Source: a virus
Direction: 5' to 3' (one strand)
Length of the DNA stretch: 64,000 bases
IMG/VR virus record: IMGVR_UViG_3300034374_004935
Coordinates: 1-64,000 of that record
Shown here: piece by piece, positions 3,347-64,000 of the stretch
How positions within the stretch are numbered: the stretch's first letter is position 1
Layout: every line of letters starts with the position of its first letter
The notes under the pieces: model-generated
Database searches by the model: none
Told to the model about the DNA's origin: nothing
Seen by the model: only the letters and a program-made list of their open reading frames with translations
Translations under genes and position numbers: made by a program

Positions 3347-3351
3347 TTTTA

Positions 3352-46779: not shown

Positions 46780-49700
46780 CTAGTTCCACCCATTATACAT
46801 GTCTTGTTCATTTTCTAGCTCTTCTATACCTTGTAATAGAATCTCCTCTCTTTCTCCTTCTGTATAAGCATCCCAATTTCTAACAGGAGACGGTCCTAAA
46901 GTTTGCTTTAACCATTTTATAAGAGAGTATTGCTTTTCAGGGTCATTAGAAAGAACGTTAGCAAAGAATCCATCACCTACTAATTGCTTGTAGAATTTGT
47001 TTTTCTCTCCAGGATATTGAAATTCATATATATTTTTCCATCCAAAAGGTATTTTCTTTTGAGCCCATTTAGATCTTCTAGATTGCCCTTCGTAAGGTCC
47101 ACTTTCAATTGCTGTACCATCAAATAAATCTGTAAGGTCTGTCCAACCTTTAAGCATTTTTGTACCTACCACAGGCTCATCTATAAGGTCTGTAAGAGTT
47201 GCAGGACTCCAAGGAGCTGACTGTTCCATTAATACCCTGTTCATGATTAATGAAGTAAATTGTATAACAAATTGATCTTCATCATCTTCGTCTGCAAACT
47301 TCTGTGCTAATCCTGCTAAGAACGAGACTAGTATTGCAGCAAACATATCTATTACAGATTTTTTAACTCCTCTTCTTTGTGCTTTAGTCATTCCGTCATA
47401 CACAGAATGTGCTGCCATAAGATCTCCTCCTTTCATAGCTTTAAAAACACTAGGAAGATATTGTCCAAAAAATGCTCTATAGTGTCCTATTTCTTCTTCA
47501 CCTGTTATCCAACTTGTTTTTTGAGTCTGCATCTTAGCATCGATTAAGTTAACGAACCAACCACGGTGCATTAAAAGGAAGTCTCCTGCAGAAGTTCTTG
47601 CTAGCTTACCTTTATCAGTAGCTCCTAGTAAACCGTCTATATTATTACTAACATATTCTATCTTACCCTTTACTGCATTTAATAGTCCATCATTAATGTA
47701 CTGTTTCATGCCTTTTTTTATCCTCAATTGATTGTTAACAACTTCATAAGCATTGTATAGACTTTTTTCTCTAAGAGCTTCCCATTCTTTTTGTACAGAT
47801 TTCTCATGGGCTTTGTCGGCTTTTCTAGATTTTCCGTATTCTATTCCTTTTTTAGTAGCTGTTTTTCTTAAGAATTGTTCTTTAGTAATAAAATTGCCAT
47901 CGTATAATCTGTAGTTATCATATACTCCTAAAGAGATTCTAGATTTTAATCCGTAATCTCCTGTAGCATATGTAACATACATTAAATCTCCGCTAGCTAA
48001 TTTTTTTGTTAACCTAGATTTATCTGTCTCATATAACATAGAATCTAAACTAACAACTCCCATATCCTGGTTAAGAAGATGCATCTTGCTACTTTGTTTA
48101 TTAGACCCTATTTCTCCTATAACAGTTCCTATTTCTTTTAAGAATTCTATTCTTGACCAATTTTTACTTTCAGCAGTAATATATAAACCAGTAGAACCTT
48201 CTATAATAGAATCGATAGATCCTTTAATGTAACCTGCTAAAGATGTAGGCACATTAAATGCAAGGTTATTGTTTCTAATATATGAAGCTATACCTGATGT
48301 TAGTTTTGTAATACTTACAGTTTTATTTGTGCCTGGTATAGTATACTCAGCAGTCTGCCTTTGTTGACCATAAACTAAACTGTCAATCATTTCTTTAACA
48401 GTAGCGTATTCCATACTTGCTTCAGATGCTACCTTTTCTTTTATGTTTCCTCTTCTAACACTATAGTATTCTTTATCTTTTAAAGAAAATAGTATGTTGT
48501 TTACATCAGGAGAAATTTTTGTCATCTGATAAAAATTCTCTGCCATCTCTGCAAACATTACAAAAGCTCTTCCGAAATCAGTAGTTAATTTAGAAGGGTC
48601 ATCTAATTCTCTTGTAAAGTAAATTGGAACTGTTTCTTTATCAAGTTCTCTTAACTCACCGAATTGAGTATCATCTTGTTCAATCATTACTCCTTCTCTA
48701 GCAACTTCTTTTATTCTAGTAAGAATATTTCCGTCTGCTCTAAATAATCTATCTAAAGTACTCTTCATCATAGAAGGACGCATGTAAAGCAACTGATCCG
48801 TTTGAAATCCTGCAGGTAATTTTGCAAGAGCTTCTCTTTTTACTCTCATCAAAGTTTCATAATGAAGTCTGAATTTCTCATCTTTCATTAATTTTGCAAA
48901 ATTCTTATTCTTATAACTATCGTTAGGAACTTGTTTATACTCTTGTCTGATATAATATCCTTGTTTTTTTTTCTCAGCTATATCACTTTCATTTACCCAA
49001 ATAGGATCTCTATTTGAATTTCTAAGTTTCATTAATACTTGAGTAGTTAAATTGCCTTCTTCATTTATTATATCTTTTTTAGCATCTACTTTAATACTAA
49101 CAGCATTTTTAATATACCAACCTTCCCACATCTTAGCATATGCGGCAGCTTGTTCTGCTGTAAAGAAATTTTTATTTATTAAACTAGGATCTCCTTCTCC
49201 AGTTTCTGGGTCTACGTAACCTAATTTCTCAGCTACTTTTTTTCTAAACTTTTCTCTTTCTTTATAAAATTTAGAATAGTTATAATCTGCTACCATATAA
49301 TGGGTAGGCTTATTGCCGTCCATCTCTATGAGATCTTCTTGTTTATATTTACTTAAGAATAAAGTCTGGGAAGCTAATACATCTCTAGCAGTACTTACGG
49401 CAAATCTTTTAACATTATTATAAGCATCATAAATAAATTTATGTACTGATCTAATAACAGCTGACTTAGCATTTTTAAAGTTACCTGTATAATATTTAAA
49501 CCAATCAAAGAATTTTGTTTGCATAGCTTCAAAAGCACTCTCTTCATCAAAATCTTTATCTATAACTTCACCATCAGGTGTTCTATTTATTTCTCTAAAC
49601 TTTTCTTTATTTTTTTCTAATCTTAAAGGTTTTAATCTGGTTCTAGATTTAGTTATTAAATCTCTTAAACTAGCTACTGCTTCCTCTATATCTGCTCCTT

Positions 49701-51249
49701 CTTCTCTAGTAACAGTAGATACTCTTACATCTTCTATCAAAGTATTGATAAGAGAATTATAACTATCTAAGAATAGCTCATAATTATATAATGTTCGTCC
49801 ACCTAAAGTAACGTCTCCTCTTTCTGCAGAATCTAATACTTTAAATATTTCATATACTTCTTCTTTAGAAGAGTAAATCCATTTAGTAATACCAGTATTA
49901 TACCTAGCATTTTCAAGGTCTCTTTGTAGACCTTCTATCTCAGCTGTAACTGCAGCAATTGCTTTTTTACTTTTCTGACTTCTAGTATCTCTTTGAGCTT
50001 CTTTAAGTCTTTGTTTCTTCTTTAAAAGCTGCTGCTCTACTTTTTTAAGAAACTTTTCTTTTTCAGTCAGTTTCCTTTCATCGCTTCTTTTTTCTTTTTG
50101 ATATTTAATATCATCTTTTGTAAAAGGTCTTTTGCCTTCGTGTTTCTTCAGCTGTTTATAGGACTCAAACTTTTCATATTTTCCTACTTGCTCTTGATTT
50201 AATATATCTCTAGCCAAAGGAATAACAACATTTTCTATATCATTTCTACCTGCACTATCTATTCCTAGAGCCCAATCTAACCAGGCAGTAAAATCTTGCC
50301 ATACTTTCTTAAGACTTTGCCAGAATCCTGATACATCTTCTTCAATAAATTGATCAGTCTGTTTAAACTGATTAACTATTTCAGCTGCTAATATCTTACC
50401 TAAAGCTTCTTTTCTAAAGTCTTCTTCATTCTCATAGATATCTTTATACTCTTCTTTTACTTGTGCGTAAGTCTCAGTCTCTGTGACTTGTTCTAAAGCT
50501 TGTTTTATAGTAGTAGGACCTAAAATATAATTAGCCTCCCCTTGGCTCATCAACTGCATCTCAATAGCAAAGTGAGCGACTTCTTCTGCAAGAGTATCTA
50601 TCTTAGCTCCATCAGCAATAGCGATAAGAGAATTCATAAAGTCAGCAACTCCTAAAGCATTTTCTTCAAATCTATTAGGGAATTTTTCCATCACAGATTT
50701 TAAAGACTCTATAGCTACTCCATGTTTTCTTGCCCAAGCTCCTAATATTCTATCTAATTTAGCATTTGCTTTTTCAGTATTCTTAACACTCATTTGTCTA
50801 AACATACCGTTAGCATATGGTGAGTAGTAAGTATCTTCTTTCTGGGCTACATTAGCATTTTTATAACCTGCTATATAATAAGTGCCATCAAACTTTTCTT
50901 TAAGTCTCCAAGGCTGATCCCCTATTCTATCAGAAATTTGTCTAAGCTTAGTATTAATTCTTCTGACATCATTTTCTGATAAATCTTTTTGATATACTTC
51001 ATTAAAGAATATATCACGAGCTTCTTTTATAACAGCTCTAGCTCTAGAAGGACCTCCTTGATATAATACTTGTTTTTCTTGAGTATTTTGTATAGAAGTT
51101 AGACCTATTTGTTCTATAGTAGGAAAATCTTCTGTATTATTTTGTTCCATCCATATACCAACTTTAGCAGCTACTATAAGAGGATTTACTTCTGTATCTA
51201 GTAACAGCTGTTTAAATTCAGGATGAGATTTATTTATACATTTACTCAT
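46780..51249 (-). CDS. large virion cargo (ejection) protein
   Basis: 1489 aa directly after the RNAP gene; degenerate zincin-like AEEVAHF...EALGKILA; helical C-terminal region. Confidence 0.75.
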   Translation of the reverse strand: MSKCINKSHPEFKQLLLDTEVNPLIVAAKVGIWMEQNNTEDFPTIEQIGLTSIQNTQEKQVLYQGGPSRARAVIKEARDIFFNEVYQKDLSENDVRRINTKLRQISDRIGDQPWRLKEKFDGTYYIAGYKNANVAQKEDTYYSPYANGMFRQMSVKNTEKANAKLDRILGAWARKHGVAIESLKSVMEKFPNRFEENALGVADFMNSLIAIADGAKIDTLAEEVAHFAIEMQLMSQGEANYILGPTTIKQALEQVTETETYAQVKEEYKDIYENEEDFRKEALGKILAAEIVNQFKQTDQFIEEDVSGFWQSLKKVWQDFTAWLDWALGIDSAGRNDIENVVIPLARDILNQEQVGKYEKFESYKQLKKHEGKRPFTKDDIKYQKEKRSDERKLTEKEKFLKKVEQQLLKKKQRLKEAQRDTRSQKSKKAIAAVTAEIEGLQRDLENARYNTGITKWIYSSKEEVYEIFKVLDSAERGDVTLGGRTLYNYELFLDSYNSLINTLIEDVRVSTVTREEGADIEEAVASLRDLITKSRTRLKPLRLEKNKEKFREINRTPDGEVIDKDFDEESAFEAMQTKFFDWFKYYTGNFKNAKSAVIRSVHKFIYDAYNNVKRFAVSTARDVLASQTLFLSKYKQEDLIEMDGNKPTHYMVADYNYSKFYKEREKFRKKVAEKLGYVDPETGEGDPSLINKNFFTAEQAAAYAKMWEGWYIKNAVSIKVDAKKDIINEEGNLTTQVLMKLRNSNRDPIWVNESDIAEKKKQGYYIRQEYKQVPNDSYKNKNFAKLMKDEKFRLHYETLMRVKREALAKLPAGFQTDQLLYMRPSMMKSTLDRLFRADGNILTRIKEVAREGVMIEQDDTQFGELRELDKETVPIYFTRELDDPSKLTTDFGRAFVMFAEMAENFYQMTKISPDVNNILFSLKDKEYYSVRRGNIKEKVASEASMEYATVKEMIDSLVYGQQRQTAEYTIPGTNKTVSITKLTSGIASYIRNNNLAFNVPTSLAGYIKGSIDSIIEGSTGLYITAESKNWSRIEFLKEIGTVIGEIGSNKQSSKMHLLNQDMGVVSLDSMLYETDKSRLTKKLASGDLMYVTYATGDYGLKSRISLGVYDNYRLYDGNFITKEQFLRKTATKKGIEYGKSRKADKAHEKSVQKEWEALREKSLYNAYEVVNNQLRIKKGMKQYINDGLLNAVKGKIEYVSNNIDGLLGATDKGKLARTSAGDFLLMHRGWFVNLIDAKMQTQKTSWITGEEEIGHYRAFFGQYLPSVFKAMKGGDLMAAHSVYDGMTKAQRRGVKKSVIDMFAAILVSFLAGLAQKFADEDDEDQFVIQFTSLIMNRVLMEQSAPWSPATLTDLIDEPVVGTKMLKGWTDLTDLFDGTAIESGPYEGQSRRSKWAQKKIPFGWKNIYEFQYPGEKNKFYKQLVGDGFFANVLSNDPEKQYSLIKWLKQTLGPSPVRNWDAYTEGEREEILLQGIEELENEQDMYNGWN

Positions 51250-54200
51250 TAGTTACATTTTATAACATTATATTTTTCTTCAGGAGAAAGAGTGTCCCAT
51301 TCTTGTTGAGTCATTATATCTCTAGTAGATGTACCGTTAGCAGTTTTTATTCCATAAAGATAATTAGTTATACTTGGACCATTTTGATATATCTCTTCTA
51401 CTATATAATTTTGGTTATCTCTTAACCATTTATCTCCTTCACTTATCTGTTCTCTTTCACGCTGTATCGTTTCTCTGTAATCCTTAGTTACATTTTCTAC
51501 TATTGCGTTTATAAGTTCCATAGATTCTTCGTAAATTTCTTCTCCTCTACCTTTTTTAGGTACTTCATAAAATATCGAAGTTAACCAATCTATAAATTTT
51601 TGCCAAATACTTTTTGATTCTTGTGGAGCTCTTAAGCTTTTAACATGATTTGCAAAGTCAGGATTAGTAAAAATTTCTGCTACAAATTCAAATTCATCTG
51701 TAAAACCGTAAAGATCTTGCTTCGGAGATTCACTCTTTTTATCTAAATTTTTTGCTTCCTTAAATAAATTTGTTAGCTCAGTATTCTTTTGTCTTAACTC
51801 TTTGTCTATAATATCTTGAGTAACTCTTTTACCATCTTTTACAGTAGTTTGTTTTCCTTTAACAACTAAATCAATAGTAAAAGCATGGGTTACTTCATGG
51901 AGGAAAGCATATAAATAAAATGCTCCACTATCTACTTGTCGTATTGTTTCTTCATTTAAATATATTGTGTCATTATAGTAGAACATGTAAGTACCTCTAC
52001 CTCTTGTTTGCTCTGCCCACTCTTCATTATTTAAAAATTTAACTTCAAAATTAACTCTTCCTAGTTTAGTAACTAGCTGTGATATATTAGAGTCTTTTTC
52101 TAGATAAGGCCAAAAAGCTCTGAGTACATCTTGACTGCCTTTAATTTTTTCTGGATCAAAAAAGCTTCTATCAAAATTCACAGCTAATTGTTCCCAAGAA
52201 ACACTATCATGATAATTGTCTACAAGCGTCTCTGAGATACCTGAAACCTTTAGCTTAAACATTTCGTAAAGTTCTTTAACCACTGGGTCATTTTCAGGAG
52301 TCTTATCTACAAACTTTTGCTCCATATTCTTAGCATTGAATATTTGGAATTTCCCATTCTTAATCTCTGCTATAAACTCAGCATCTTTATACTGAAGTCT
52401 ATACATTTCTGTATCGGTAGAAAGATCTACTGGAGCTGTTTTCTTTGTTAAATCTACTTTAGGTTTAATTGTACTCGGTACTTCTCCCTCTGCTGATTTA
52501 ATATTTTGTGTGATTTCATTATCGACTGCTTGGTCTGCTAATCTTTGAGCTTCTGTTTTGCCGTCTTTTATAGTGTCTGGTGCAGGAGATACAGAGTTTT
52601 CTATTGCTCCTAATGCATTAAATTCTAAAGCGACATTACTAATCCCTAAATTAGGTACTCTATTATATTTATAAACAACAATTTCTTGGTTATTACTATT
52701 GTATTCTATAATTGTATCTGTTAATTTATAGATAGAAGTTGCATAATGATTATTTATTTTAGTATCATATGCTTTTATATACGGTACAGGTTCGTCGAAT
52801 CTGTCTCTAAGATTAGTTGTAGCATAATTACCTATGACAACTAAATTGCCTTTTAAGTCTTTTATTATATTAGCATCTGCTTCGTAGAAAGTTGATGTAA
52901 TTCTTCCTGTAGGAGTCAGGTAATTCCCAGCATCTTCTTCTGATAATGTTCTATCTATTTTAGCAGTAGGAATAAAATTATGACGATTAGAATAGTTACG
53001 AATAAATTGTTCTATAAATCTTCCATTATACTCAGAATCATAATTCTCTACCATTAATCTTTTCTGAAGAAGTTCGTTCATAGTAAGCTGTCCTCCTCCA
53101 TCTTGTATCATTAAGTCTGGTTGAGTAGACTGATACTCATTAGTAAAGAACATGACGGGAATAACATTAGCAAATGTATAAGGACCGAAATTAAATCCGT
53201 TAGCAAAGAACGAATACTTTATTAATTTTTTTGCTATCTCTCTAATTTCAGGATCAGGGTCTAATAACATTCTTTCCCAAGAATCTGATAATGCTTCTAT
53301 ATCTTCAGCAAACTTTCCTGTTTGATAGAATTGAATTCTGCTAATAGGAGAAGTTAAATCTGGACGTACTATATGAAGTTGGTCCATTAATGGTTTAAAT
53401 GGAGAATTCTCAGGTAAGTTTCTTTTAAACGTTAAAAATTCTCCAGGGAATTTCTTTAATATATCGTCTATCTGATCGTGGTGGAAAAACTTAAATTCAC
53501 TAGCAATGTAATTTAAATAGTTACTATTAATTAATTGCGCTTCTTCTTCTCTTAAAACTCCTGTACCTTTAAACTCAGTAAACTTTTCTTTAATTAATCC
53601 TAAAGGAGAGAACTTAGTTTCTGTAGGATTATTTTCATTTATATTACCAATAGTTGGAAACACCTTTTCGTAAATACCAATAGGCTTATATAAACCGTAT
53701 GTTGTAAATGCGGGGCTTTGTTTTTGTTTAGGATTTTTATATAAGAAAATTTCTTCTAAACCTGATATTTTATTAGCTCCTCTTTGATTGTCTACTAATA
53801 TTCTTGTTTGATTGTTTAAGAATACATAGTCAGCTGCACCAGTAGATCCGTAAGCAGTAACAGAATCTGTTTTAGAAGCTCGTATTCCTCTAGATAATTC
53901 TTCTGCTATAGTATCTAATTCTTCAAATAAAGCAAGTGCTGCTTTTTGGATAAAAGCATTTTTAACACCTTTCTTACCACTTAGAGTTTTTTCTAACATC
54001 TCAGTAGTTAAGTCTTTTATATTTACTGGTTTCACAGTAGTTCCACTAGGAATCTGTTCTTGAAGATTAGCTATAATCTCTTTCTTTATTTGAGAAACAA
54101 GATTTTGTTTACTCATAGACCCTTGTTCATTTTGAACTCTATTTGTTAGTTCTAATATTGCAGGCTGATTTAGTAAAGCAAACATAAAGGCTTCGTCGAC

Positions 54201-57200
54201 ACCAAGTCTATCTGCAAGTGCTACTACATTAGCAGTAAACATGTTGAAGTTTAAGAATGCTGAAATAGGTTCTTTCGCATTATCCACAACAGCTGCTAAT
54301 TTAGTCGCAAGTATTCTTGAAATTCTTTTACCAGTTCTACTTCTAATTTGATTTAATGCTTGATAAGTTTGTTTATTAAATTCTAATTGGTCTACTAATT
54401 TAAGATTTGTATACTGAGCTTTAGCATGGTGAGTATTATGATTCGCCATAATACCAATAAGATCGTTACCGTCCATGTTACGTCGGAATAACTCTAATTG
54501 AGTAGAAGGATAAGCAATGTTAAAGTCGGCATCATCATCTAGTTTATCTGCAGCTGCTAATAATTCTTTTCCTTTTAAATTAGCTTCTTTAGTTTTGCCT
54601 GCTTTTAATAATCTAATTCTAGCACCTGCATATTTTAAAGAATCAAAGTTACCTGGATTAATAATTGCAGCAGCAGTATTTCTATTTTCTAGAATAGACT
54701 TCATAATATTTATTTTCATATTATCTCTAGCTGCTCTAGTATTGTAACTTGATATATTTATGCCAAGATTTTTAGCATCAAGAAGTGCACTAGCTATTAC
54801 ATCAATAATTACATTTTTACCTTCTTCTGCTTCTTGAAGCGCTATACTTTTTTCAACAAGCTCTTCGTCCCATTCTTGTCCATTTAAAATATTATAAAAA
54901 GAATCGATTGTTTCTTGAAGTTCTTTTTTTAGAGCTTTAGCATCTTCAGTATTTAATTGTTTAGACTTTTTTAATTCTCTTTCACTTTCTCTAATTTCTC
55001 TTTTAATATCTGAAAGGCTACGATTTTTATCTTTTGTGGCTAGAGCTACTTCTTGTATTGAAGTTTCTACTCTTTTTAAAAACTCTTCTCTTTCTTTTTC
55101 ATTTTTTATAGTATCCTCTGCAAATTTTTTAATTAATATTTTATTTCTATAAATATTTTCAGCAAGATCATTTGCTTGTTCTTGGTTATCTATAGTACTG
55201 TAGTATTGAGTTATTTTGGGAATATTATCTATAACTCTAAAATGTTTAGATAAGAAATACAATTTATCAATATCGAAGTCAAGACCTGCAATAGTAGTTA
55301 CTTCAGGAGGCATTATAATAGTATTAGCCATAGACGGAGGAGTAAATCCTATAATTCTAATATTAAACATAGAGTATTTATCTTCCGTCGGAATCCTGTT
55401 AGCTATAATTTCTAATAGCTCAGAAGCATACATGTTTATGTATTCAAAGTCAACTTCTCCGTCTTTAGTAGGAAAAAATTTCTTTGATGTATGAGGCATT
55501 AATACTTCCCAAATAATTTTACCATCTTCAATTTTTAATTTAGGATGGTATCTTTCTCCTACAAGATCTGCATCTTCTTCTCTTTGAAGAGTACTTACAC
55601 CGTAAGAAGGCGTGTTAATTACCCCTCCCCCTTTAATTTTTTGTTTAACTACATTGTTTTTAAAGATAGAATGCAAAAGAGTTTCTGTTTGATATAAAAT
55701 TCTAGGATGGAATAAAGGCAAAGCTGTAGTAATTGTTTTTTTTGATCCTAATGATGCATCATTAACAGTGACTTCTACTGGAGAAATAGCTTGAAGATAT
55801 TGGTCTCCCATATTTCTTTCAACAGCATGTTCTCTTAATAAAGGAATCAGCTTTACATAATTAAGAGTACCGTCAGGATTTACCATATCTTTTTCTAATG
55901 ACTCGAAAGATTCTTTTAAGTCGTCGAAAATAATATCTTGATATAATGAAACTACTTCATATCCTTTTAATGAAGTTCTAGTATCGCCTATAAATAAATC
56001 ATAATCCTGGTCCATTGCTATATCACCAGTAATAAGAGTTCTTAGCTGTGATCCAAAATTACTTCTTTCATCAATATGGTGAGCAGGAGTTTCTTGCTGT
56101 TTTCTGTAATCAGATATATCTAAATTAAATACTTTAACACTATCATATCCTACAGAAGGTATGTAGCTTCCGTCAGCTTGCTTTTCATAGTGAGTAAACC
56201 TACTATCTTTTCCATTTGTTATTCCTCCTACTTTAACAGCTGATTCAAAAAGAGCTACTTCATATGCGCCTCTTTCCATATCTTCATATATTGCAGCAAG
56301 TTTAGGATAAACTAGATTACCTTGCTTATCTTTTTTAAGAGCAAAAGATTTAGTAAGTACTGTTTCAGAGTTCTTAATCTGCATAGGAACTCTTACACCA
56401 TCAACATACATTTGTGTAAATGTAAATGGTTTTAATGGAGATGCAGGAGGATCTATAATTCTTAAATCTTCTATAGTTTCTTTTCCTTTTTTAATTCTAT
56501 CATAGGCTTTATCATGGGCTTCTCCCCACTCTCCTAAACCTTTTAATATTTTTTTACGGAAATCTAAAGATACAAAAGTACCACCATCTGATTCATTATT
56601 TTGATCTCCTACTTTTTTAGCATTAGCCTTTTCTTTCCACATTATTTTCAATGCTTCTTTTTCTACAGGAGTCATATTAGACTTATCAATAATATCATTG
56701 ATATGTTTTAGATTTTCTTTAGAGGTAGGAACCATCGAGTCTTCTAAAATAATAGCGCTATAACTTCCTGTTAAAGTAGTGTATGTACCAGGACTAAAGA
56801 TTTGCTTAAAACGTTTTTGATAATCTGTAGTACCTTTATAAAAACTAGGATCTCCTGCAAATAAAACATTTGTTTGAGCATTATAATAAAAAGTATTCAT
56901 AAGGTAATCTATAAATACTTCGTTTTGTGCTTGAGTAGTTTCTAGACTTTTGTCTAAAATATTAGGATTAAATGTCATTAATCCTTCTGCTGTTTTTCCT
57001 TCAACAATTCCTGATTCTTTATATTTAAGATATTGTTGTCTAAAGAAAGTATCTTTTTCTAAATTAAACTCAAAGAATTTTTGAATTTCTTTTTTAATAC
57101 CTTGTTTAGTTTTAAGATTTTTAGCAGGAACTTTATTTAAAAAAGTAAGTAATTGAAAGTTCTTTCCTCTTTTTACATAGTTCTTATTTAATAATAATGG

Positions 57201-60200
57201 ATGAGGAACAGCATCTTTATTTTCTTTCTTTTCTTTTTTATACTGTTCTTCCAAGCCTTTGATAAACTTCATTCTTTCCATTTCTGCGATAGCAGTATCT
57301 GTAAGTTTATCTATAATTTCATCTTTACTAAGTCTCTTTACTTTTAAATAATGGGCAGTAGGAGAGTTTGAAGGTATACCTAATTTAATACCCACATTAC
57401 CTTGTTGGTATTCTCTTTTACCTCTTCTATAATATAAACCAAAAGAAGTTGCTTCTAATTCTATATCAGACATCTTACCATAAGTAACAGCTTTGTTTTG
57501 TCCTTTTCTAGTAAGTCCGTCTAATATAATAGATTTAAGATTATTTCTTAAACCGTCGTCATTTTTTAAATCTTGTAAGAAAGGCAAGTTACTTACTAAT
57601 AAATCATTTCCTGCTACATTATCTATAAGCTTCTGAAGACTATCTTCATCTTTAACTTCTTCTAACATTTTATTAATCTGTCCTGAAAGAATAATGTTAT
57701 ACTTAGTTTTACCTCCTATACCTCTAAAACTAGAAACTAATTCGGTGTCTAGTGCAGGCTCTATAGCTTCTGCTAATTGTTGTACTAAACTTTTTCCTGA
57801 AGCTTTACTTTTTCCGTACTGAATATCTGTTTCAGGAGTTAGTTTAGTAAATGGATTAACTCTTGCTTTTGCGTCTCTTTTATATTTAGGAGTCTTAACT
57901 GTTCTTTTCTTTCCGTCTTCGCCAACAACAGTTCGACTTTCCATCGCTGTTCTATCTGTTCCAACTAGTTTTTTACCTACCTCTTGGAGAACACGTAATA
58001 GATTTCCAATCTTTCCTCTTTTATATAAGAATTTTGCTCCTCCACTATTATAGATTTTATCTAATTGTTCAGGAGTTAAGAAAAGATTTACAGTAGCTAA
58101 GTGATCAGAAAGTAGTTTAAAGAATTTTCCGTTTTCAAAAAAGTCTACACTTTTTTCAGCTACTTTTTCATCAGCACTAACATCATTTTGTCTATATAAA
58201 AAATCTAATTTTAGTAAACCATCTAAGAAAGCTTTGGCTTTAGCTGCGTCTATATTATCTGTCCAAAGAGCATCTTGTTTACCTACTTTATATAATGAGT
58301 TAGTACTAGATAAGAAGTTAGCTATAAGATCTTCTGAAATAATATCTTTGATAGTTTTAGAGTTAGAACTAAATACTCTAAATTCTCCATTTACTTCATA
58401 GACACTTTCAAACTCTGCAAAGTTTTTACTAGCAAAATTGGCAAAGAACAATGTTCTTAGTCTTGGATTCTGAGCAAATAAATCTATAACATCTTGTTTC
58501 CAAGGTTTATTTAGAGTAGCTAGTTTTGCGTCAAAGTTTTCTAAAGTATAACTATTAGCTACTTTAGATACTAAAGCAGCAAATACTACATTAGAATCTT
58601 CTACATCTTGAATACCAAAAGGAGAAATTGCTTTTGAACCATCAGAATTATATTTAGGAATATTAGCAAAGAAACTAATAAGCTGTTGCTTCATTCCCTG
58701 CTTAGGATTTCTTTCAATACTATTTATCTGTGCTACTCTATCTGGAGTATCTTCTCCTTCTTCAATAGCATTTATATAATCTTGTTCTGTAACTTGACCG
58801 TTAGTGCCTTCTTGAGGAGATCTACTCTCTGCTTCAAATCCTCCATAACTAATTTCAATACCTTCATTACTTTTTAAGAATCTATTAAACTGTTCTAATA
58901 AATCAGAAGACTTCATAAATTCTATTCTACCTTTTGGATTCTTCCTAACAATCTTTTGATTATTAGTTATGATTTTATAGAACTTACTAAAGTGATGAAT
59001 TAAGTTTTTAAACTTAGCAACTTTTTTAGTATCTCCAGCTGCCTCTGCTTGTGCAAGAAGTTGTTTTGCGACTGCTATATCTCGAACAACATCAGTAATA
59101 GCATTACTAAATATAATATGAGGACCTGAGTTCTTAGACTTCTTACCTACTAAATTTATTATTTCAGGTACAGATAATTTATTTTCTGGGTCTAATTGTT
59201 GGCGGAATCCTTCAATGGCTTTTTTAATCTTACTGTTAAAATATCTTAACGCCCATTTTTTCTCAACTGGATTTATATACTTTCTGTTAGGAGCAGTAGT
59301 TCTTACAGATTGTCCGATAGATTGTCTAATAGATCTTTTTAATACAGTGTTTTTAAATTTTATAGAATCCGCATACACTCCTAAGTTTATATTCTCAAAT
59401 AAGTTATCTATGTTTAGAACTTTATTCTTTTTAAAGAAAACTCGTAACATTCTAGAAAGACCTTTAAAAAAAGCATTAGTCTCTTTAAAATTTTCTTTAC
59501 CTGCTAATATATCTTTAGTTTTTTGTTGCCCCGTTCTTTTATCTTCAGGGACAGGTTGCTTGCTTACAGGCTTAAGCTTATCAACTTCTTGGCTTTGTTC
59601 ATAAGCCATAAACTTATCTGCTAAGAATTCTTCTAACTCAATAAAAGTAGGTCTAACATATTGAACTTCTTTAGTACCGTCTTCTAGAGTAACTTCTTTT
59701 CTTGTTAAAGGAATCTCTTCTTGATACTTATAAAAGATCTCATTTAAGATTTTAACTCTTTGTTCTATAGGCAGAACTAAATTAAAAATAACATGAAATG
59801 CTTCGTGAGCTTCTGTTCCTGCTGGAGCTAACTCTGATATTAATACTGCAGCAGTAGTAAATAATCCATATAACTCATCTCCGTTTTTTAATGCTTGTTG
59901 CAGCATCTCAAAAGATTCTTTAGGAAGGTAGTGGCGTAAAGAATCAAAATCTTTAATGACTCTAACAGTGCCTTTCTTTCCTGACTGTCTTTTAAAAGAC
60001 TCTCCTAATATTCTTTTAAGAGTTTCTAATCCTTGTTCTCTAGCTTTCTTAGCATCTTCTTTAGCAAGTTCAGGGTCCATCTTAGGGCCCATTTTTGTTT
60101 TAAGATTACTATCTCCAAAAGGATCTCCTATTATATCATCGCTAGAAGATACATCAGTATCTATATCGTCACCAGTCTCTGATTCTGAATCAAGAAGAGT

Positions 60201-61592
60201 ACTTTCATTACTTCTAGTTTCTTCCATTGCTGCTACACCTGCAGAGATGCCTTGTTCTTCTGCAGCTTTTATTATATCATCAAGATCTTGTGCAGATAAT
60301 TCTTGGTCAGAGTCTATAATCTCTTCTCTTGTCGGAGCTCTTTCACCTGGCTCTTCTTTTTTTACTGGTTCTCCTTTTTGTTGTTTCTTTCCTTCTTCTG
60401 TAGCTTGTGCTGAAAGAAGTGCTAACTCTTCATCAAACTCAAATTCAAAATCATCGGGAGGTATTTGATCATCAAAGTATTCTGCTTCGTCTTTCTTAGT
60501 ACTAGTTTGATTAGGATTAGGCTCATAAGCTTCGTTAGATGTAGGACCAAATTCCTCATTGAAATTTTTCTCATCACTTTTATCAAAGTCTAATACTTGC
60601 TGCTCATAAGCTTTTTTCTCAGACTCACTTAATTGATAAGTTTCTAAAAAGAAAGAACTTGAATGAAAGAAGTTACCGTCTTCATGAAATAAGTCAGTAG
60701 TAATAGCTCCGCTTTCTGCAACTTGTTGATTATAGTTTCCTTCGTTGATTCTAGCAAAATCTATTTTTCTAATTCTTTTTCCTAAAAAATCAATAGCTGC
60801 ATCTATTTGATCTCCTGGAATTTTTATTTCTTGAGGGACAATTACTTCTCCTTCTACTTCTGTCCACTTAAATTCGAAATAAGAATCTTTTTTAGTATTG
60901 CCTCTTTTGTATTCAATATTAAATCTATAAGTAATATCTTCAAGAACTTCTCTAATTTTTTTGATATCATCAATATTAGTAGCTTCTTGTAATTCTTTTA
61001 GTTTAGTTTTTACAGTGTCAAAATCATTTGTATCTGCTATCTTATGGGTAAATAACTTAACAGGATATAAACCATATGCAGAAGGAACTAACATGTAAAC
61101 ATATCCAGGTTCTAAACTTTCACTGAGATTTACTTTAGAGTTTTCTAGTTTTTCTCTTAATGCTTTTGCTTTTTCTGACCCCGCTCTCCCTGTATGAATA
61201 GTACTCATGACTGTATCTCCTTGTCCATCTTGTCCAATGTTAACACGATCAATAGTTTTAATAACTAATAGTAGTTCATTATTTTTATCGCCTCTAGCAT
61301 CAGCTGCTTTTTTTAATAAAACAGCAGGATTATTTTTTAAAGGCTCTCCATTGTTTTGTGGATCTGTACCAACATTAAGATTTCTTTGAATCTTTCTTTT
61401 AATTCTAACTCTTACAGGAGCTTGCTGTACAGTTTCTTTAGGTTTGTTGATTATTTTAGTTTCATCTAACTGAAACTCTTTTAGAGAAATCGCTTCACCT
61501 CTTAATAGCTGATCTAATAAACCATTATTAAGAATAGATTTAAACTCTTCCTCACTTCGCCAATTACCGTCGTACCAATACTTACAAGCCAT
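51249..61592 (-). CDS. virion-packaged double-psi-barrel RNA polymerase polyprotein (phi14:2 gp66-like)
   Basis: Catalytic RIPT...AGLDFDIDK (~55263-55290); GDPSFYK...KR, SDGG, KNS, ESAVKVG, GSQLR and VDNAKEP motifs; two HExxH zincin-like motifs. Confidence 0.92.
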   Translation of the reverse strand: MACKYWYDGNWRSEEEFKSILNNGLLDQLLRGEAISLKEFQLDETKIINKPKETVQQAPVRVRIKRKIQRNLNVGTDPQNNGEPLKNNPAVLLKKAADARGDKNNELLLVIKTIDRVNIGQDGQGDTVMSTIHTGRAGSEKAKALREKLENSKVNLSESLEPGYVYMLVPSAYGLYPVKLFTHKIADTNDFDTVKTKLKELQEATNIDDIKKIREVLEDITYRFNIEYKRGNTKKDSYFEFKWTEVEGEVIVPQEIKIPGDQIDAAIDFLGKRIRKIDFARINEGNYNQQVAESGAITTDLFHEDGNFFHSSSFFLETYQLSESEKKAYEQQVLDFDKSDEKNFNEEFGPTSNEAYEPNPNQTSTKKDEAEYFDDQIPPDDFEFEFDEELALLSAQATEEGKKQQKGEPVKKEEPGERAPTREEIIDSDQELSAQDLDDIIKAAEEQGISAGVAAMEETRSNESTLLDSESETGDDIDTDVSSSDDIIGDPFGDSNLKTKMGPKMDPELAKEDAKKAREQGLETLKRILGESFKRQSGKKGTVRVIKDFDSLRHYLPKESFEMLQQALKNGDELYGLFTTAAVLISELAPAGTEAHEAFHVIFNLVLPIEQRVKILNEIFYKYQEEIPLTRKEVTLEDGTKEVQYVRPTFIELEEFLADKFMAYEQSQEVDKLKPVSKQPVPEDKRTGQQKTKDILAGKENFKETNAFFKGLSRMLRVFFKKNKVLNIDNLFENINLGVYADSIKFKNTVLKRSIRQSIGQSVRTTAPNRKYINPVEKKWALRYFNSKIKKAIEGFRQQLDPENKLSVPEIINLVGKKSKNSGPHIIFSNAITDVVRDIAVAKQLLAQAEAAGDTKKVAKFKNLIHHFSKFYKIITNNQKIVRKNPKGRIEFMKSSDLLEQFNRFLKSNEGIEISYGGFEAESRSPQEGTNGQVTEQDYINAIEEGEDTPDRVAQINSIERNPKQGMKQQLISFFANIPKYNSDGSKAISPFGIQDVEDSNVVFAALVSKVANSYTLENFDAKLATLNKPWKQDVIDLFAQNPRLRTLFFANFASKNFAEFESVYEVNGEFRVFSSNSKTIKDIISEDLIANFLSSTNSLYKVGKQDALWTDNIDAAKAKAFLDGLLKLDFLYRQNDVSADEKVAEKSVDFFENGKFFKLLSDHLATVNLFLTPEQLDKIYNSGGAKFLYKRGKIGNLLRVLQEVGKKLVGTDRTAMESRTVVGEDGKKRTVKTPKYKRDAKARVNPFTKLTPETDIQYGKSKASGKSLVQQLAEAIEPALDTELVSSFRGIGGKTKYNIILSGQINKMLEEVKDEDSLQKLIDNVAGNDLLVSNLPFLQDLKNDDGLRNNLKSIILDGLTRKGQNKAVTYGKMSDIELEATSFGLYYRRGKREYQQGNVGIKLGIPSNSPTAHYLKVKRLSKDEIIDKLTDTAIAEMERMKFIKGLEEQYKKEKKENKDAVPHPLLLNKNYVKRGKNFQLLTFLNKVPAKNLKTKQGIKKEIQKFFEFNLEKDTFFRQQYLKYKESGIVEGKTAEGLMTFNPNILDKSLETTQAQNEVFIDYLMNTFYYNAQTNVLFAGDPSFYKGTTDYQKRFKQIFSPGTYTTLTGSYSAIILEDSMVPTSKENLKHINDIIDKSNMTPVEKEALKIMWKEKANAKKVGDQNNESDGGTFVSLDFRKKILKGLGEWGEAHDKAYDRIKKGKETIEDLRIIDPPASPLKPFTFTQMYVDGVRVPMQIKNSETVLTKSFALKKDKQGNLVYPKLAAIYEDMERGAYEVALFESAVKVGGITNGKDSRFTHYEKQADGSYIPSVGYDSVKVFNLDISDYRKQQETPAHHIDERSNFGSQLRTLITGDIAMDQDYDLFIGDTRTSLKGYEVVSLYQDIIFDDLKESFESLEKDMVNPDGTLNYVKLIPLLREHAVERNMGDQYLQAISPVEVTVNDASLGSKKTITTALPLFHPRILYQTETLLHSIFKNNVVKQKIKGGGVINTPSYGVSTLQREEDADLVGERYHPKLKIEDGKIIWEVLMPHTSKKFFPTKDGEVDFEYINMYASELLEIIANRIPTEDKYSMFNIRIIGFTPPSMANTIIMPPEVTTIAGLDFDIDKLYFLSKHFRVIDNIPKITQYYSTIDNQEQANDLAENIYRNKILIKKFAEDTIKNEKEREEFLKRVETSIQEVALATKDKNRSLSDIKREIRESERELKKSKQLNTEDAKALKKELQETIDSFYNILNGQEWDEELVEKSIALQEAEEGKNVIIDVIASALLDAKNLGINISSYNTRAARDNMKINIMKSILENRNTAAAIINPGNFDSLKYAGARIRLLKAGKTKEANLKGKELLAAADKLDDDADFNIAYPSTQLELFRRNMDGNDLIGIMANHNTHHAKAQYTNLKLVDQLEFNKQTYQALNQIRSRTGKRISRILATKLAAVVDNAKEPISAFLNFNMFTANVVALADRLGVDEAFMFALLNQPAILELTNRVQNEQGSMSKQNLVSQIKKEIIANLQEQIPSGTTVKPVNIKDLTTEMLEKTLSGKKGVKNAFIQKAALALFEELDTIAEELSRGIRASKTDSVTAYGSTGAADYVFLNNQTRILVDNQRGANKISGLEEIFLYKNPKQKQSPAFTTYGLYKPIGIYEKVFPTIGNINENNPTETKFSPLGLIKEKFTEFKGTGVLREEEAQLINSNYLNYIASEFKFFHHDQIDDILKKFPGEFLTFKRNLPENSPFKPLMDQLHIVRPDLTSPISRIQFYQTGKFAEDIEALSDSWERMLLDPDPEIREIAKKLIKYSFFANGFNFGPYTFANVIPVMFFTNEYQSTQPDLMIQDGGGQLTMNELLQKRLMVENYDSEYNGRFIEQFIRNYSNRHNFIPTAKIDRTLSEEDAGNYLTPTGRITSTFYEADANIIKDLKGNLVVIGNYATTNLRDRFDEPVPYIKAYDTKINNHYATSIYKLTDTIIEYNSNNQEIVVYKYNRVPNLGISNVALEFNALGAIENSVSPAPDTIKDGKTEAQRLADQAVDNEITQNIKSAEGEVPSTIKPKVDLTKKTAPVDLSTDTEMYRLQYKDAEFIAEIKNGKFQIFNAKNMEQKFVDKTPENDPVVKELYEMFKLKVSGISETLVDNYHDSVSWEQLAVNFDRSFFDPEKIKGSQDVLRAFWPYLEKDSNISQLVTKLGRVNFEVKFLNNEEWAEQTRGRGTYMFYYNDTIYLNEETIRQVDSGAFYLYAFLHEVTHAFTIDLVVKGKQTTVKDGKRVTQDIIDKELRQKNTELTNLFKEAKNLDKKSESPKQDLYGFTDEFEFVAEIFTNPDFANHVKSLRAPQESKSIWQKFIDWLTSIFYEVPKKGRGEEIYEESMELINAIVENVTKDYRETIQREREQISEGDKWLRDNQNYIVEEIYQNGPSITNYLYGIKTANGTSTRDIMTQQEWDTLSPEEKYNVIKCN

Positions 61593-61606
61593 GAATTAAA
61601 ATTTAT

Positions 61607-61614
61607 CAAAGTTA
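61607..61614 (-). promoter_or_regulatory. Bacteroidota-type -7 box (TAACTTTG) upstream of the RNAP gene
   Basis: TAnnTTTG consensus 14 nt before the ATG. Confidence 0.5.
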
Positions 61615-61624
61615 CGGATTTTTA

Positions 61625-64000
61625 CTAACATTGTTTTTCTCCTATATAGTTATTGCCGTCTAAGATATCAACGTACCCTTCACCGAATCTATTACTAAGC
61701 TGTTCAATTATATCATCGAAATTTTCTTCTATTACTTTTTCTCTAGCAGTCTGTTCTACTTCTGTTTCTGGCGAAGTAGTTTTTATTAGTTTACTATCTT
61801 CTAATGTACCTGTTTTTGAAATTCTTACTATTCCTCCTTCATCAGGAAATAAAATTTCTACTTGATCAAATCTAACACCGTTTGGATCTACAATAATATT
61901 AACTATTGTTCCTTTTCCAAATTTTGGATGTATAATATTATCACCTTTTTTAAGTGTATCAAGTAATCCTAAATCAGATGCTATATCTACTGTAGTAGTT
62001 TGTTCTTGTTTGAAATATAATCCTTGTTTTATAGCCTCATCTACAACAGCTCGTCCTAAAGGAGAAGAATAATTTCCTACTACTTTACCTGTTTCTAGAT
62101 TAATTACTTCACCTTCCCCAAAAACTAAATCTACATTAGTAGAATATTTAACTCCTTTATACTCAACAATAATAGGAGGCAGATCTTTCTGTTCTACGTA
62201 CTTTGATGTAGTAGTTTCTTTAGTTTCTGTTTTAAAAGCAACAGTAGCTTGATATCCTTCATAAGATTCTATAGAGTCTTTAGTTGTTGATGATATAAAT
62301 CCTCCGTCAGTTTCTTTTGTAGAATTATATAAAGCCTCTCTTAAACCTTTTACACTAGGGTTTCTAGAAGTTGTTTGAAGTCTTCCTATAAAAGTATCTC
62401 CATGATATACATTAATACCGATGTTATCAGCATCATATACACTTTTATCTCCGTAAGAATTTCCGTTCTCATCTAACTCAGTAGCAAATTTAAATTCAGC
62501 TGTCTCTTCGTATTTTTCTAAATCTTCATTATTTAACCAATCAGGGCTATTAACTTTCTTCATGTCGTACCCATCTATTTCTGTTTGAGTAGTTGGTCTA
62601 CCTTGACTATCTTCCCAAGGATAAGGTTTACCTGTTTGTGGATTTATTGGCGTTTTTATTAATTTGCCGTCTTCGTCAAATCTTAATTGCTTTTCGTTAA
62701 TAGTAGGAATGTTACCACTAGTAGATTGTTCGACAGCTTCTTCGAACATGTCATCAATAGTAAAAGCTTCTTTCTTCTCGTCTTTAAACTCTGATGTACT
62801 TTGTACAGGTTCAGGAGTTACGTTTTCTTTCTTTGAATTAGCAAAGTTAGTATTACGTTTAGAAATCTCTGAAACTATATCTTCATAGTTATTTAGAATA
62901 GTATTGAATGCATTTAAAAAACTAGTTTTAAAATCCTCGTTATCTTTAAAGTTATCTATATTATCTAATGAGTAATCTAATCCATTAGGAAGCTCGTCTC
63001 GGCTTTCCATAACTTCAAAAATATGTTCTACTAGATTAGCATTCTTTCCATCTTTTAATGCCTCAACTACTTCTTCATATGGAGCAGTTTCTGGGTCAGA
63101 TAATTTTGATTTTACAGTATTTAATTGGCTTATAACATTTTCAGAATGAGCAGGAACATCTTTTCCAAAAAGTTCTCTATAAGAATCAAGATTTGTTTTT
63201 ACACTAGAACCATCTTGTTTTTTATTGACAGCTTCTTCTGCTCGTTTTTTTATGCCATCTATAAGCTCTTCAGCAAATTGTTTTTCAAAATCTTCTTTTA
63301 ATTTAAACCAGGTATTGGCTCCTTTATTTGTAAAGAGAGTAGAATAGATTTCAGAAACTTTAGCTTGCTTAGTTTTAATTTGAAATATATCTTTAACAAT
63401 ACCTTCTATTTCAGATTTATTAAAGTTATATGATTCAAAATTATCTTCTTTTATTTGACCTAAGATCTCTTTAATAAAACTATCTAGTTTTTTCTTGCCT
63501 TCTTCTTGTGCAAAATAAATTACGTCTCCTTTTTCTACAGCTGCTAGTACTTCTCTATAATTTTCATCTTTATATAAAACATCTAGATTACTATTAGGAG
63601 CTAATTCATTTAGTTTTTCTCTTAGTTCTTTTTCTCTTTCTTTTAGATTGTCTCTACTAGATAATAAATAAACAGCTTGTTTTTTAAGAGCGTTTTGTTT
63701 ATTTCTTATAAAGTTTGCTTTTGCTCGCATATAATCCTGCTGATCCATTTCGAGCTCAGGATTCTTACTTGGGTCAAGTTCTTCTAATTGATCTAATCCT
63801 TTATAATTTTTAAGAAAGAATTTATCTATCCAGGTTTTTCTATCACTAGCTATAGAATCAAATGTATCTTGATTCTTAACAATTGTGTCAACTCTTTTAC
63901 GAAGAGTTTCTAAATTCTTCTTTTTAGTTTCTTCTGTAAATTGAAGAGCTTCATCTTTGTGAGCAAACTGTTCGTTAAACTCTTCTAGAGACATATTCTC
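61625..64000 (-). CDS. large virion cargo protein, C-terminal part (5' end probably outside window)
   Basis: Frame stays open to the window edge (GAG AAT ATG...); acidic and helical; Tudor-like HPKFGKG segment; ends in Cys. Confidence 0.75.
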   Translation of the reverse strand, partial: ENMSLEEFNEQFAHKDEALQFTEETKKKNLETLRKRVDTIVKNQDTFDSIASDRKTWIDKFFLKNYKGLDQLEELDPSKNPELEMDQQDYMRAKANFIRNKQNALKKQAVYLLSSRDNLKEREKELREKLNELAPNSNLDVLYKDENYREVLAAVEKGDVIYFAQEEGKKKLDSFIKEILGQIKEDNFESYNFNKSEIEGIVKDIFQIKTKQAKVSEIYSTLFTNKGANTWFKLKEDFEKQFAEELIDGIKKRAEEAVNKKQDGSSVKTNLDSYRELFGKDVPAHSENVISQLNTVKSKLSDPETAPYEEVVEALKDGKNANLVEHIFEVMESRDELPNGLDYSLDNIDNFKDNEDFKTSFLNAFNTILNNYEDIVSEISKRNTNFANSKKENVTPEPVQSTSEFKDEKKEAFTIDDMFEEAVEQSTSGNIPTINEKQLRFDEDGKLIKTPINPQTGKPYPWEDSQGRPTTQTEIDGYDMKKVNSPDWLNNEDLEKYEETAEFKFATELDENGNSYGDKSVYDADNIGINVYHGDTFIGRLQTTSRNPSVKGLREALYNSTKETDGGFISSTTKDSIESYEGYQATVAFKTETKETTTSKYVEQKDLPPIIVEYKGVKYSTNVDLVFGEGEVINLETGKVVGNYSSPLGRAVVDEAIKQGLYFKQEQTTTVDIASDLGLLDTLKKGDNIIHPKFGKGTIVNIIVDPNGVRFDQVEILFPDEGGIVRISKTGTLEDSKLIKTTSPETEVEQTAREKVIEENFDDIIEQLSNRFGEGYVDILDGNNYIGEKQC

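Follow-up and report, generated by a model that had tools for sequence, protein, structure and literature searches.

Terminal cysteines at the facing ends of three giant cargo proteins of a freshwater crAss-like phage suggest a head-to-tail disulfide chain

In the pre-ejectosome of cyanopodophage A4 (Anabaena phage A-4L), cryo-EM places a disulfide between Cys1715 of gp27 and Cys5 of gp26, with the C-terminal helix of gp27 sitting in a cleft of gp26 (PMC12002296, PNAS 2025, in part). Both are large, consecutively encoded ejection proteins and their cysteine signature is the one described below: the sole cysteine of the 1717-aa gp27 is found at position -3 and that of the 1114-aa gp26 at residue 5. 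The part of the A4 article considered here neither extends the pattern to relatives as a rule nor connects it with genes being fused or split. The Schitoviridae (N4 gp50-52; DEV gp71-73) likewise eject a giant virion RNA polymerase (RNAP) together with companion proteins, and suppression of cysteine in these proteins has been described (PMC11445570). N4 gp50 (3500 aa), gp51 (644 aa) and gp52 (150 aa) contain no cysteine at all, in agreement with the first-pass annotation, which had called the N4 virion RNAP cysteine-free, and with PMC11445570. They thus have no terminal cysteine, in contrast to the four of the phage studied here; covalent chaining is not suggested for that family, and its polymerase is of another kind than that of Crassvirales (PMC13434306, in part).

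According to PMC10172136 and PMC13434306 (both in part), it has yet to be settled in what way crassviruses package their very large cargo proteins, among them the polymerase with which infection begins, how these are put in order and how they reach the host. In crAss001 the cargo proteins were found in virions by mass spectrometry and are unresolved in the reconstructions; the virions contain structural disulfides, and the disulfide table of the article concerns those of the tail assembly (PMC10172136, in part). The word 'cysteine' does not occur in the portion of that article considered, nor do 'cysteine', 'disulfide' or 'cys' in that of the Drobysheva preprint, so that the residues discussed here go unmentioned in both. 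Our literature search found no description of a terminal-cysteine rule for Crassvirales.

The window is a stretch of 64,000 nucleotides of IMG/VR record IMGVR_UViG_3300034374_004935, lying on an 83,638-bp contig of a freshwater crAss-like phage. It carries three giant cargo proteins (1459, 3447 and 1489 aa), the middle one being the RNA polymerase. Their frames were translated on the minus strand with the following features:

61625..64000, minus strand: upstream cargo protein, C-terminal 791 codons; sole cysteine is the last residue (...IGEKQC)
61628..61630, minus strand: tail Cys1459 of the upstream protein (...IGEKQC, then stop), TGT by codon check
51249..61592, minus strand: virion RNA polymerase protein, 3447 aa; cysteines at 3 (MAC) and 3446 (VIKCN) only
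61584..61586, minus strand: Cys3 of the RNAP protein, TGT by codon check
59793..59807, minus strand: HEAFH zincin-type motif, residues 596-600 of the RNAP protein, invariant in alignment A1
55266..55280, minus strand: DFDID catalytic motif, RNAP residues 2105-2109, invariant in the 39/39 aligned homologues of A1
51255..51257, minus strand: Cys3446 of the RNAP, penultimate residue (...VIKCN, then stop), TGT, kept in at least 90% of A1
46780..51249, minus strand: 1489-aa downstream cargo protein, counterpart of crAss001 gp49; sole cysteine is Cys4 (MSKC)
51238..51240, minus strand: Cys4 of the 1489-aa protein, TGT by codon check

The upstream gene extends past the window to 66004, and its whole 1459-aa product still has one cysteine. 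The claim that cysteines occur only at adjoining termini of the three cargo proteins was thereby confirmed by translation for the full upstream gene as well. There are 4 cysteines in 6,395 residues and none is internal; every one sits no more than 4 residues from a terminus facing the neighbouring protein, while the C-terminal region of the 1489-aa protein has none, nor has the 1093-aa gene product preceding the upstream cargo gene. The remaining ORFs of the window contain, by subtraction, 154 cysteines in 13,799 aa (1.12%), a background at which about 71 would be expected in the cargo residues.

Identity of the polymerase is supported by several matches. A profile of 39 homologues (A1) matched chain A of PDB 6VR4, the DNA-dependent RNAP of phi14:2, with an E-value of 9e-51, the match spanning profile positions 915-2127 and chain residues 240-1498, and tblastn of the protein gave 22-24% identity to the 'putative RNA polymerase' of crAss001 and cr128. 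The DFDxD catalytic motif of the Crassvirales virion RNAP (phi14:2 gp66 type, two-barrel) is present as DFDID, and the protein is laid out as a zincin-like N-terminal third followed by a two-barrel RNAP. The 1489-aa protein matches phrog_37651, 'virion structural protein' (E 2.5e-25). The window also encodes a portal (phrog_6547, E 1e-109), a terminase (phrog_6681, 6e-93) and a major head protein (phrog_11589, 6e-64), three PHROGs which we take to be crAss-specific. By analogy with homologues detected in virions, the RNAP would be packed in the particle, and the three cargo proteins are probably injected.

The terminal cysteines recur among relatives. Among the 120 RNAP homologues listed of 602 matches, 115 have a cysteine within the last 10 residues and 84 within the first 10, and internal cysteines are absent from 85; the homologues together have 69 internal cysteines over 395,250 residues. 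In 68 related IMG/VR loci, 208 adjacent same-strand ORF pairs were compared: 74 carried both tail and head cysteines, 5 a tail alone, 11 a head alone and 118 neither. This co-occurrence is strong (Fisher 9e-38, with kinship among loci ignored, the locus counts being phylogenetically non-independent), and most of the discordant pairs can be accounted for individually. With 115 of 120 listed RNAPs carrying the C-terminal residue and 74 complete against 16 one-sided pairs, the anticipated conservation and pairing in homologues held. Internal cysteines make up 0.026% of the 340,960 residues of the relatives' cargo. Upstream-type relatives identified by BLAST (18 complete locus ORFs) have a C-terminal cysteine in 17 cases and an N-terminal one in a single case; complete p1489-type relatives show the reverse, with 50/53 N-terminal and 0/53 C-terminal, and none of 15 p1093-type proteins has any cysteine. 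The outer ends of the cargo chain are thus bare.

The same rule is found in two cultured crassviruses, whose proteins are homologous to ours with the parts in the same order. In crAss001, gp47 has one cysteine at -3, gp50 has Cys5 and one at -9 in addition to an internal Cys1334, and gp49 has one at residue 5. In phi14:2, the 1797-aa protein ends in cysteine, cysteines of the 2180-aa protein are at 3 and -2, and in the 1421-aa protein residue 3 is a cysteine; these cargo proteins are likewise present in virions by mass spectrometry, according to the record notes. Compared with this phage, both have their first split some 450-750 profile positions further on, and in crAss001 the HEAFH-motif region falls in gp47 and not in gp50. 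The crAss001 gp47 gene is also opposite in strand to gp50 and gp49, and by gene sequence the terminal-cysteine rule is independent of gene adjacency.

Such observations bear on the reading in which the residues have no function, being chance or a by-product of junction nucleotide signals such as coupled stops and starts. The stop codon of the RNAP gene does share one base with the start codon that follows (TAATG). However, 4 cysteines would land singly within 4 residues of each facing terminus with a probability of about 4e-12, so that the pattern of this genome is far beyond chance. The pairing also persists across intergenic distances of -11 up to roughly 500 nt, where other genes intervene between partners (L024, ferritin-like ORFs) and, in crAss001, where the partner genes are encoded on different strands, and both TGT and TGC codons are used. 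Contradicted on all of these points, absence of function has almost no credit with us.

Fused and split genes bear on which cysteines belong together. Four fusions of upstream protein and RNAP (P0080, P0081, P0086 and P0109) retain the C-terminal cysteine alone. In P0055, a fusion of RNAP and p1489 part, Cys3 alone is retained, the tail and the first 32 residues of the head being deleted in frame. In L053 the RNAP and p1489 parts are fused, with about 970 extra residues before the RNAP match, and the resulting 4811-aa protein has no cysteine. These bear out the expectation that the pairs vanish on gene fusion. Conversely, alternative split points bear new cysteine pairs, at A1-profile positions of about 335 (L029), about 450-750 (crAss001 type, L059, L064) and 1914 (L045), and added small links of 288 aa (L016) and 456 aa (L028) carry a cysteine at each end. 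Intron-like interruptions in L047 and L056 showed no cysteine pair at the breaks. In the genes compared, the rule is coupled to fission and fusion.

The count of four cysteines in this genome, taken by itself, would permit another pairing, with the RNAP closed on itself through Cys3-Cys3446 and the upstream tail joined to the 1489-aa head. We regard this as very improbable: the fusions drop precisely the two facing cysteines and keep the other facing pair, the chains of 3 or 4 links in L016, L045 and L059 are consistent with neighbour pairing only, and a circular RNAP would be unable to thread as a single strand. It could also be argued that each cysteine acts singly, as an anchor to the portal or inner capsid wall or as a modification site, and that pairs arise since each gene break makes two termini, both in need of such an anchor. 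The comparative data do record co-occurrence and not contact, and cargo proteins need holding in the capsid cargo zone (PMC10172136, in part). Yet single action predicts cysteines at the outer ends, where they occur at 0/53 last-protein C-termini and 1/18 first-protein N-termini, and the fused L053 protein dispenses with all of them; we consider it improbable.

The head cysteines belong to short N-terminal modules:

61500..61592, minus strand: 'Head II', RNAP residues 1-31 (MACKYWYDGNWRSEEEFKSILNNGLLDQLLR); Cys3, beta-hairpin, helix, then low-confidence linker
51100..51249, minus strand: 'Head I', residues 1-50 of the 1489-aa protein (MSKCINKSHPEFKQLL...FPT); Cys4, small helical domain, then flexible linker

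Head II forms a family of 19 N-termini, with Cys3 invariant in 39/39 (A1) and 16/16 sequences; its AF2 model has strands at 5-7 and 10-12, a helix at 14-31 and pLDDT below 50 at 49-78. In head I, C4, L15 and P43 are invariant in 32/32 sequences, and in the AF2 model residues 1-50 have pLDDT 85-93 and form helices at 10-19, 23-37 and 45-48, pLDDT falling below 50 at 55-65. This module also begins the crAss001 gp50-type RNAPs and the RNAP half of L045. At least four head families can be distinguished and, in alignments and predicted models, heads are small conserved modules each followed by a low-confidence linker.

We think it probable that the three cargo proteins are joined head to tail in the virion by two inter-chain disulfides, Cys1459-Cys3 and Cys3446-Cys4. 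That the link is a disulfide is suggested by the A4 case and, likewise by analogy, by the structural disulfides of crAss001 virions. The disulfide chain proposed in the first-pass annotation thus gains partial support, from conservation and pairing, from the loss on fusion and from the A4 cryo-EM precedent. In A4 the disulfide is seen in particles; here the clasp is proposed from gene sequences. A4 has one link and no RNA polymerase and belongs to Saffermanviridae, as opposed to two proposed links including the RNAP in this phage. Comparison of A4 gp27 and gp26 with the crAss cargo proteins gave a best blastp E of 0.099 and no phmmer match at E up to 1, hence a working likeness and not membership.

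The facing cysteines, perhaps with nearby His, Asp or chain termini, might alternatively share a metal (Zn or Fe), which would preserve the head-to-tail clasp. Pairing, fusion and fission data suit any two-cysteine clasp, a His frequently follows the cysteine of head I at a distance of five residues (CINxSHP), and a metal site could form before packaging in the reducing cytoplasm. Against it, two thiolates by themselves make a weak site, no additional ligand is conserved over four head families, the sole solved case of the signature, A4 gp27-gp26, is modelled as a disulfide (PMC12002296, in part), and crAss001 virions have disulfides elsewhere (PMC10172136, in part). We judge a metal clasp unlikely.

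Under the disulfide reading, the linked cargo would form one pseudo-polyprotein, its roughly 6,400 residues sharing the same N-to-C polarity. A short C-terminal tail would dock on the small N-terminal head of the next protein and so ready the link, the RNAP presenting head II (MACKYWYD...) and the 1489-aa protein head I (CINxSHPEF...); since the two heads differ, the joins are proposed to be order-specific. Modular polyketide and non-ribosomal peptide synthases offer an analogy only: short cognate C- and N-terminal docking domains order separate giant polypeptides there, non-covalently, without a cysteine clasp and unrelated in sequence and function. With cysteines at most a few residues from where each chain ends, the join would stay thin enough for the tail channel, and absence of others would avert cross-links that hinder unfolding and threading. 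As to the notion that crAss cargo is ejected unfolded, the wording of Bayfield et al. is 'partially unfolded' (PMC10172136, in part). Reduction in the host cytoplasm would then let the proteins come apart, and we infer effects on ejection order and release.

Capsid assembly occurs in the reducing cytoplasm and many crassviruses inhabit anoxic guts, so that a disulfide would need to form late. Disulfides in aerobically purified virions could in part be products of preparation.

More tentatively, and with belief falling a little short of even, we suggest that Crassvirales own a portable redox-reversible joining system of one-cysteine heads (at least four families) and matching tails. The cargo polyprotein could be split almost anywhere and re-joined post-translationally in set order as a thread of at least 0.7 MDa, injected whole and separating on reduction; heads would have moved between break points, making the code modular. 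A covalent reducible chain would account for matching copy numbers among the three proteins, for a fixed exit order, and for the same parts being encoded by a single gene in some lineages and by two, three or more in others. Order-specific reducible protein connectors are one possible use of the small tail and head modules.

A few loci depart from the common arrangement and count against the chain. In L050, 63 residues separate the cysteine from the terminus and an additional 333-aa ORF follows, in L033 it is at -16, and in L028 the number of terminal cysteines is odd. Internal cysteines number 17, 10 and 8 in L064, L067 and L057 respectively.

The giant genes of this phage form one block on the minus strand of a single 83,638-bp contig; the window (bases 1-64000 of it) also encodes a portal, a terminase and a major head protein of crAss type.

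Giant proteins of the cargo block in gene order, and their cysteines
1093-aa protein (gene before the 1459-aa gene), minus strand: no cysteine
1459-aa upstream protein, minus strand: one cysteine, the last residue
3447-aa protein (51249-61592), minus strand: Cys3 and Cys3446
1489-aa protein (46780-51249), minus strand: one cysteine, Cys4

The first-pass annotation, from whose view all but the final 791 codons of the 1459-aa gene were missing, was correct in everything it said of the cysteines. Since the other ORFs of the window contain 154 cysteines in 13,799 aa (1.12%), about 71 would be expected in the 6,395 cargo residues, where four were observed. Their placement, one each at most 4 residues from four facing termini, has a chance probability of ~4e-12. 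Profile comparison identifies the 3447-aa protein as the crass-type virion RNA polymerase (RNAP): the profile of 39 homologues matched PDB 6VR4, the phi14:2 RNAP (E 9e-51), and DFDID at residues 2105-2109 is invariant in the alignment, as is a zincin-type HEAFH motif in the N-terminal third. Pfam search gave no match for the RNAP or the 1489-aa protein, nor did PHROGs search for the 1459-aa upstream protein. At 51247-51251 (TAATG) the stop of the RNAP gene overlaps the start codon of the 1489-aa protein by one base, an arrangement suggestive of translational coupling between them.

We then considered how far the terminal cysteines are conserved. No relative came from a megablast comparison of the region with the phage collection or from a related-locus search with a single protein as query; relatives were obtained by profile-based searches. 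Among the 120 RNAP homologues listed, of 602 in the protein collection, 115 carry a cysteine in the last 10 residues and 84 in the first 10, 85 lack internal cysteines altogether, and internal cysteines amount to 0.0175% (69 in 395,250). Five of the 120 lack the C-terminal cysteine (P0055, P0084, P0038, P0119 and P0099); P0055 is a fusion, P0084 has a cysteine at -13 (counted from the C-terminus), and the alignments of P0038 and P0119 end early. All 39 aligned homologues share C3, and at least 90% of them have C3446. The closest homologue among the matches listed (P0001; 3463 aa, 72% identity) is labelled by NCBI as a 'Candidatus Lokiarchaeia archaeon' MAG; this is probably phage sequence that was placed in an archaeal bin.

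Pairing of facing cysteines was counted in 68 related IMG/VR loci, using ATG-started ORFs of at least 250 aa on the match strand. For each two adjacent ORFs, a cysteine was scored among the final 10 residues of the leading ORF and among the initial 10 of the following one. Both were present in 74 of the 208 adjacent pairs, the former alone in 5, the latter alone in 11 and neither in 118 (Fisher 9e-38; the loci are related, so that the counts are not independent); with duplicate junctions removed the figures were 70, 5, 11 and 111. The discordant pairs mostly dissolved on inspection: MACRYWYD is followed by an in-frame stop in L015, a non-ATG start precedes ...KKGCINK in L049, the cysteine lies at -16 in L033, an unrelated 279-aa gene separates the partners in L024, and in crAss001-type loci the partner gene is elsewhere in the genome. 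Remaining exceptions are L050, with a cysteine 63 residues from the end followed by a 333-aa ORF, and L028, with an odd number of terminal cysteines from a 250-aa ORF holding three. The outer ends of the cargo set are bare of cysteine. Proteins of the 1489-aa type (53 complete) carry it at the N-terminus in 50 cases and at the C-terminus in none, upstream-type proteins at the C-terminus in 17/18 and at the N-terminus in 1/18, while none of 15 proteins of the 1093-aa type has any. Partner genes are separated by -11 to ~500 nt, crAss001 gp47 lies on the strand opposite to gp50 and gp49, and both kinds of cysteine codon are used; the rule is not an artefact of gene junctions. The terminal-cysteine pattern is real and holds across the diverse Crassvirales relatives examined.

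The key check set by the first-pass annotation was whether fused genes lose the cysteine pair at the joint, and they do. Upstream-RNAP fusions (P0080, P0081, P0086, P0109, L010, L012 and L058) have a joint without cysteine and keep only the C-terminal one. P0055, which fuses the RNAP to a 1489-type protein, keeps Cys3 as its sole cysteine, and its joint corresponds to an in-frame deletion that removes the variable tail of the RNAP together with residues 1-32 of the head (here the small conserved N-terminal module bearing the cysteine). In L053, RNAP and 1489-type parts are fused, with ~970 extra residues before the RNAP match, in a protein of 4811 aa with 0 cysteines. According to the Drobysheva preprint, the three cargo proteins are fused in some phages. 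A search with regular expressions for the heads, weak in that they were drawn up by hand, gave no convincing head motif in the fused proteins. Conversely, splits at other positions carry new cysteine pairs.

Break positions on the profile of the alignment of 39 RNAP homologues (A1; 3037 positions)
position 1: clade of this phage
position ~335: L029
positions ~450-750: crAss001 type, L059 and L064
position 1914: L045
position 3037: nearly universal

Small extra links with a cysteine at both ends occur in L016 (288 aa, Cys 4 and -2) and L028 (456 aa, Cys 7 and -2). Flanking cysteines are absent from gaps of 919 nt in the RNAP genes of L047 (8566-9486) and L056 (11536-12456) and of 566 nt in the 1489-type gene of L012 (21015-21582); profile and BLAST coordinates run on across these gaps, which look like introns or inserted elements. 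Throughout the L042 locus, translation with table 11 breaks the cargo genes into many short ORFs (290-512 aa), perhaps through stop-codon reassignment or poor assembly.

The N-termini following breaks sort into a few families, heads I-IV. Head I (CINxSHPEF..LL...W..N...FPT, 41 members) is carried by the 1489-aa type, by crAss001 gp50-type RNAPs and by the second RNAP half of L045; head II (MACKYWYDG.WRTEEEFK.IL, 19 members) by the RNAP of this phage's clade, the L029 RNAP and one 1489-type protein in L028. A given head is thus found at more than one break point. Head III reads CPNK...W, and head IV (CAIIPQVRN) is preceded by the tail ICGAxTLYxL. In AF2 models, residues 1-50 of head I form a small, confidently predicted helical unit (pLDDT 85-93) and residues 1-31 of head II a hairpin plus helix, each followed by a low-confidence stretch; PDB fold searches with the two models gave no match at E 0.001 or better. 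Complex prediction for the RNAP tail (3330-3447) and the 1489-aa head (1-120), with custom alignments, scored 0.21, below the mark of 0.32, and counts neither for nor against their contact. Of the two junctions in this genome, the first has head II and the second head I; such different heads would prevent cross-pairing of the joins.

The comparisons across relatives point towards a clasp that joins the ends of neighbouring chains; the first-pass annotation had proposed that the facing cysteines form inter-chain disulfides, or a shared metal site, linking the cargo proteins head to tail. A precedent is the cyanophage A4 (Anabaena phage A-4L), where cryo-EM shows an inter-chain disulfide between Cys1715 of gp27 and Cys5 of gp26 (PMC12002296). 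In the A-4L record, Cys1715, third from the end, and its partner are the only cysteines of the two proteins; no sequence similarity was found between the A4 and crAss proteins. The A4 structure makes a disulfide the leading candidate for the clasp chemistry, and we consider it probable; a metal bridge in its place seems unlikely. It is plausible that such a clasp would influence stoichiometry and the order of ejection and would be released by reduction. Two other roles were rejected: a split intein or trans-splicing, the cysteines lying 1-9 residues from chain ends with no intein-sized flanks, and a lipobox for the N-terminal cysteine, there being no signal peptide.

Cultured relatives follow the same terminal-cysteine rule, crAss001 gp47, gp50 and gp49 being the counterparts of the cysteine-bearing cargo proteins of this phage. 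Their masses are 262.5, 276.9 and 154.5 kDa, together near 694 kDa.

Cysteines of cargo proteins in cultured relatives
crAss001 gp47, 2341 aa (strand opposite to gp50 and gp49): single cysteine at -3
crAss001 gp50, 2412 aa: Cys 5, 1334 and -9
crAss001 gp49, 1349 aa: single Cys 5
phi14:2 1797-aa protein: cysteine as last residue
phi14:2 2180-aa protein: Cys 3 and -2
phi14:2 1421-aa protein: Cys 3

For crAss001 virions, PMC10172136 describes structural disulfides, located in the tail and the portal vertex, and cargo proteins not resolved in the reconstruction. A term search of that paper gave no mention of these cysteines; its Extended Data Tables 2 and 3 and its reduced versus non-reduced mass-spectrometry data may bear on the claim. 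A term search of the Drobysheva preprint likewise gave no mention, and literature searches covering main texts found no description of terminal cysteines in Crassvirales cargo proteins. In Schitoviridae, ejected proteins are known to be depleted of cysteine, for which transit through the oxidising periplasm is the proposed reason (PMC11445570). The N4 virion RNAP (gp50) is indeed cysteine-free, as the first-pass annotation had said, and so are gp51 and gp52. A single link of this kind has been published for another phage family (A4); new here are the proposed multi-link chain around the virion polymerase, its modular heads and the tight coupling to gene fission and fusion.

A ferritin-like gene (157-166 aa) lies between cysteine-linked cargo genes in nine related loci.

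Ferritin-like genes
L004: 9502-9984
L005: 9507-9989
L006: 9516-9989
L009: 9517-9990
L013: 9516-9989
L019: 9507-9989
L029: 8769-9269
L016: 8603-9088
L024: 10447-10929

The two that were compared with Pfam PF00210 both matched it (E 3e-14 and 3e-18). The product lacks terminal cysteines, and tblastn found no copy in this phage's own contig; in the loci that have it, an iron or oxygen enzyme at this very place might bear on thiol oxidation. In proteins of the 1489-aa type (window 46783-51249, minus strand), residues 222-226, EEVAHF, may form a metal or catalytic site, E223 and H226 being invariant and E222 nearly so among 26 members. The stretch 50800-52800 occurs near-verbatim in runs from 11 studies labelled freshwater metagenome (2017-2018) and mollusc metagenome (2025); since 19/20 of these runs are marked as potential sources of the contig, the labels carry no habitat conclusion. 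In contrast to the cysteine-free cargo block, two small ORFs are cysteine-rich and look like zinc ribbons (18904-19158, minus strand, 84 aa, 8 Cys; 26982-27197, plus strand, 71 aa, 8 Cys in CxxC pairs). Finally, cysteines lie at 400, 408, 595 and 598 in a 1128-aa protein encoded outside the window (contig 69285-72671), two genes upstream of the chain, and at 390 and 398 in crAss001 gp45 (cargo protein 1), the one cargo protein partly resolved as folded; this close pair may be conserved.
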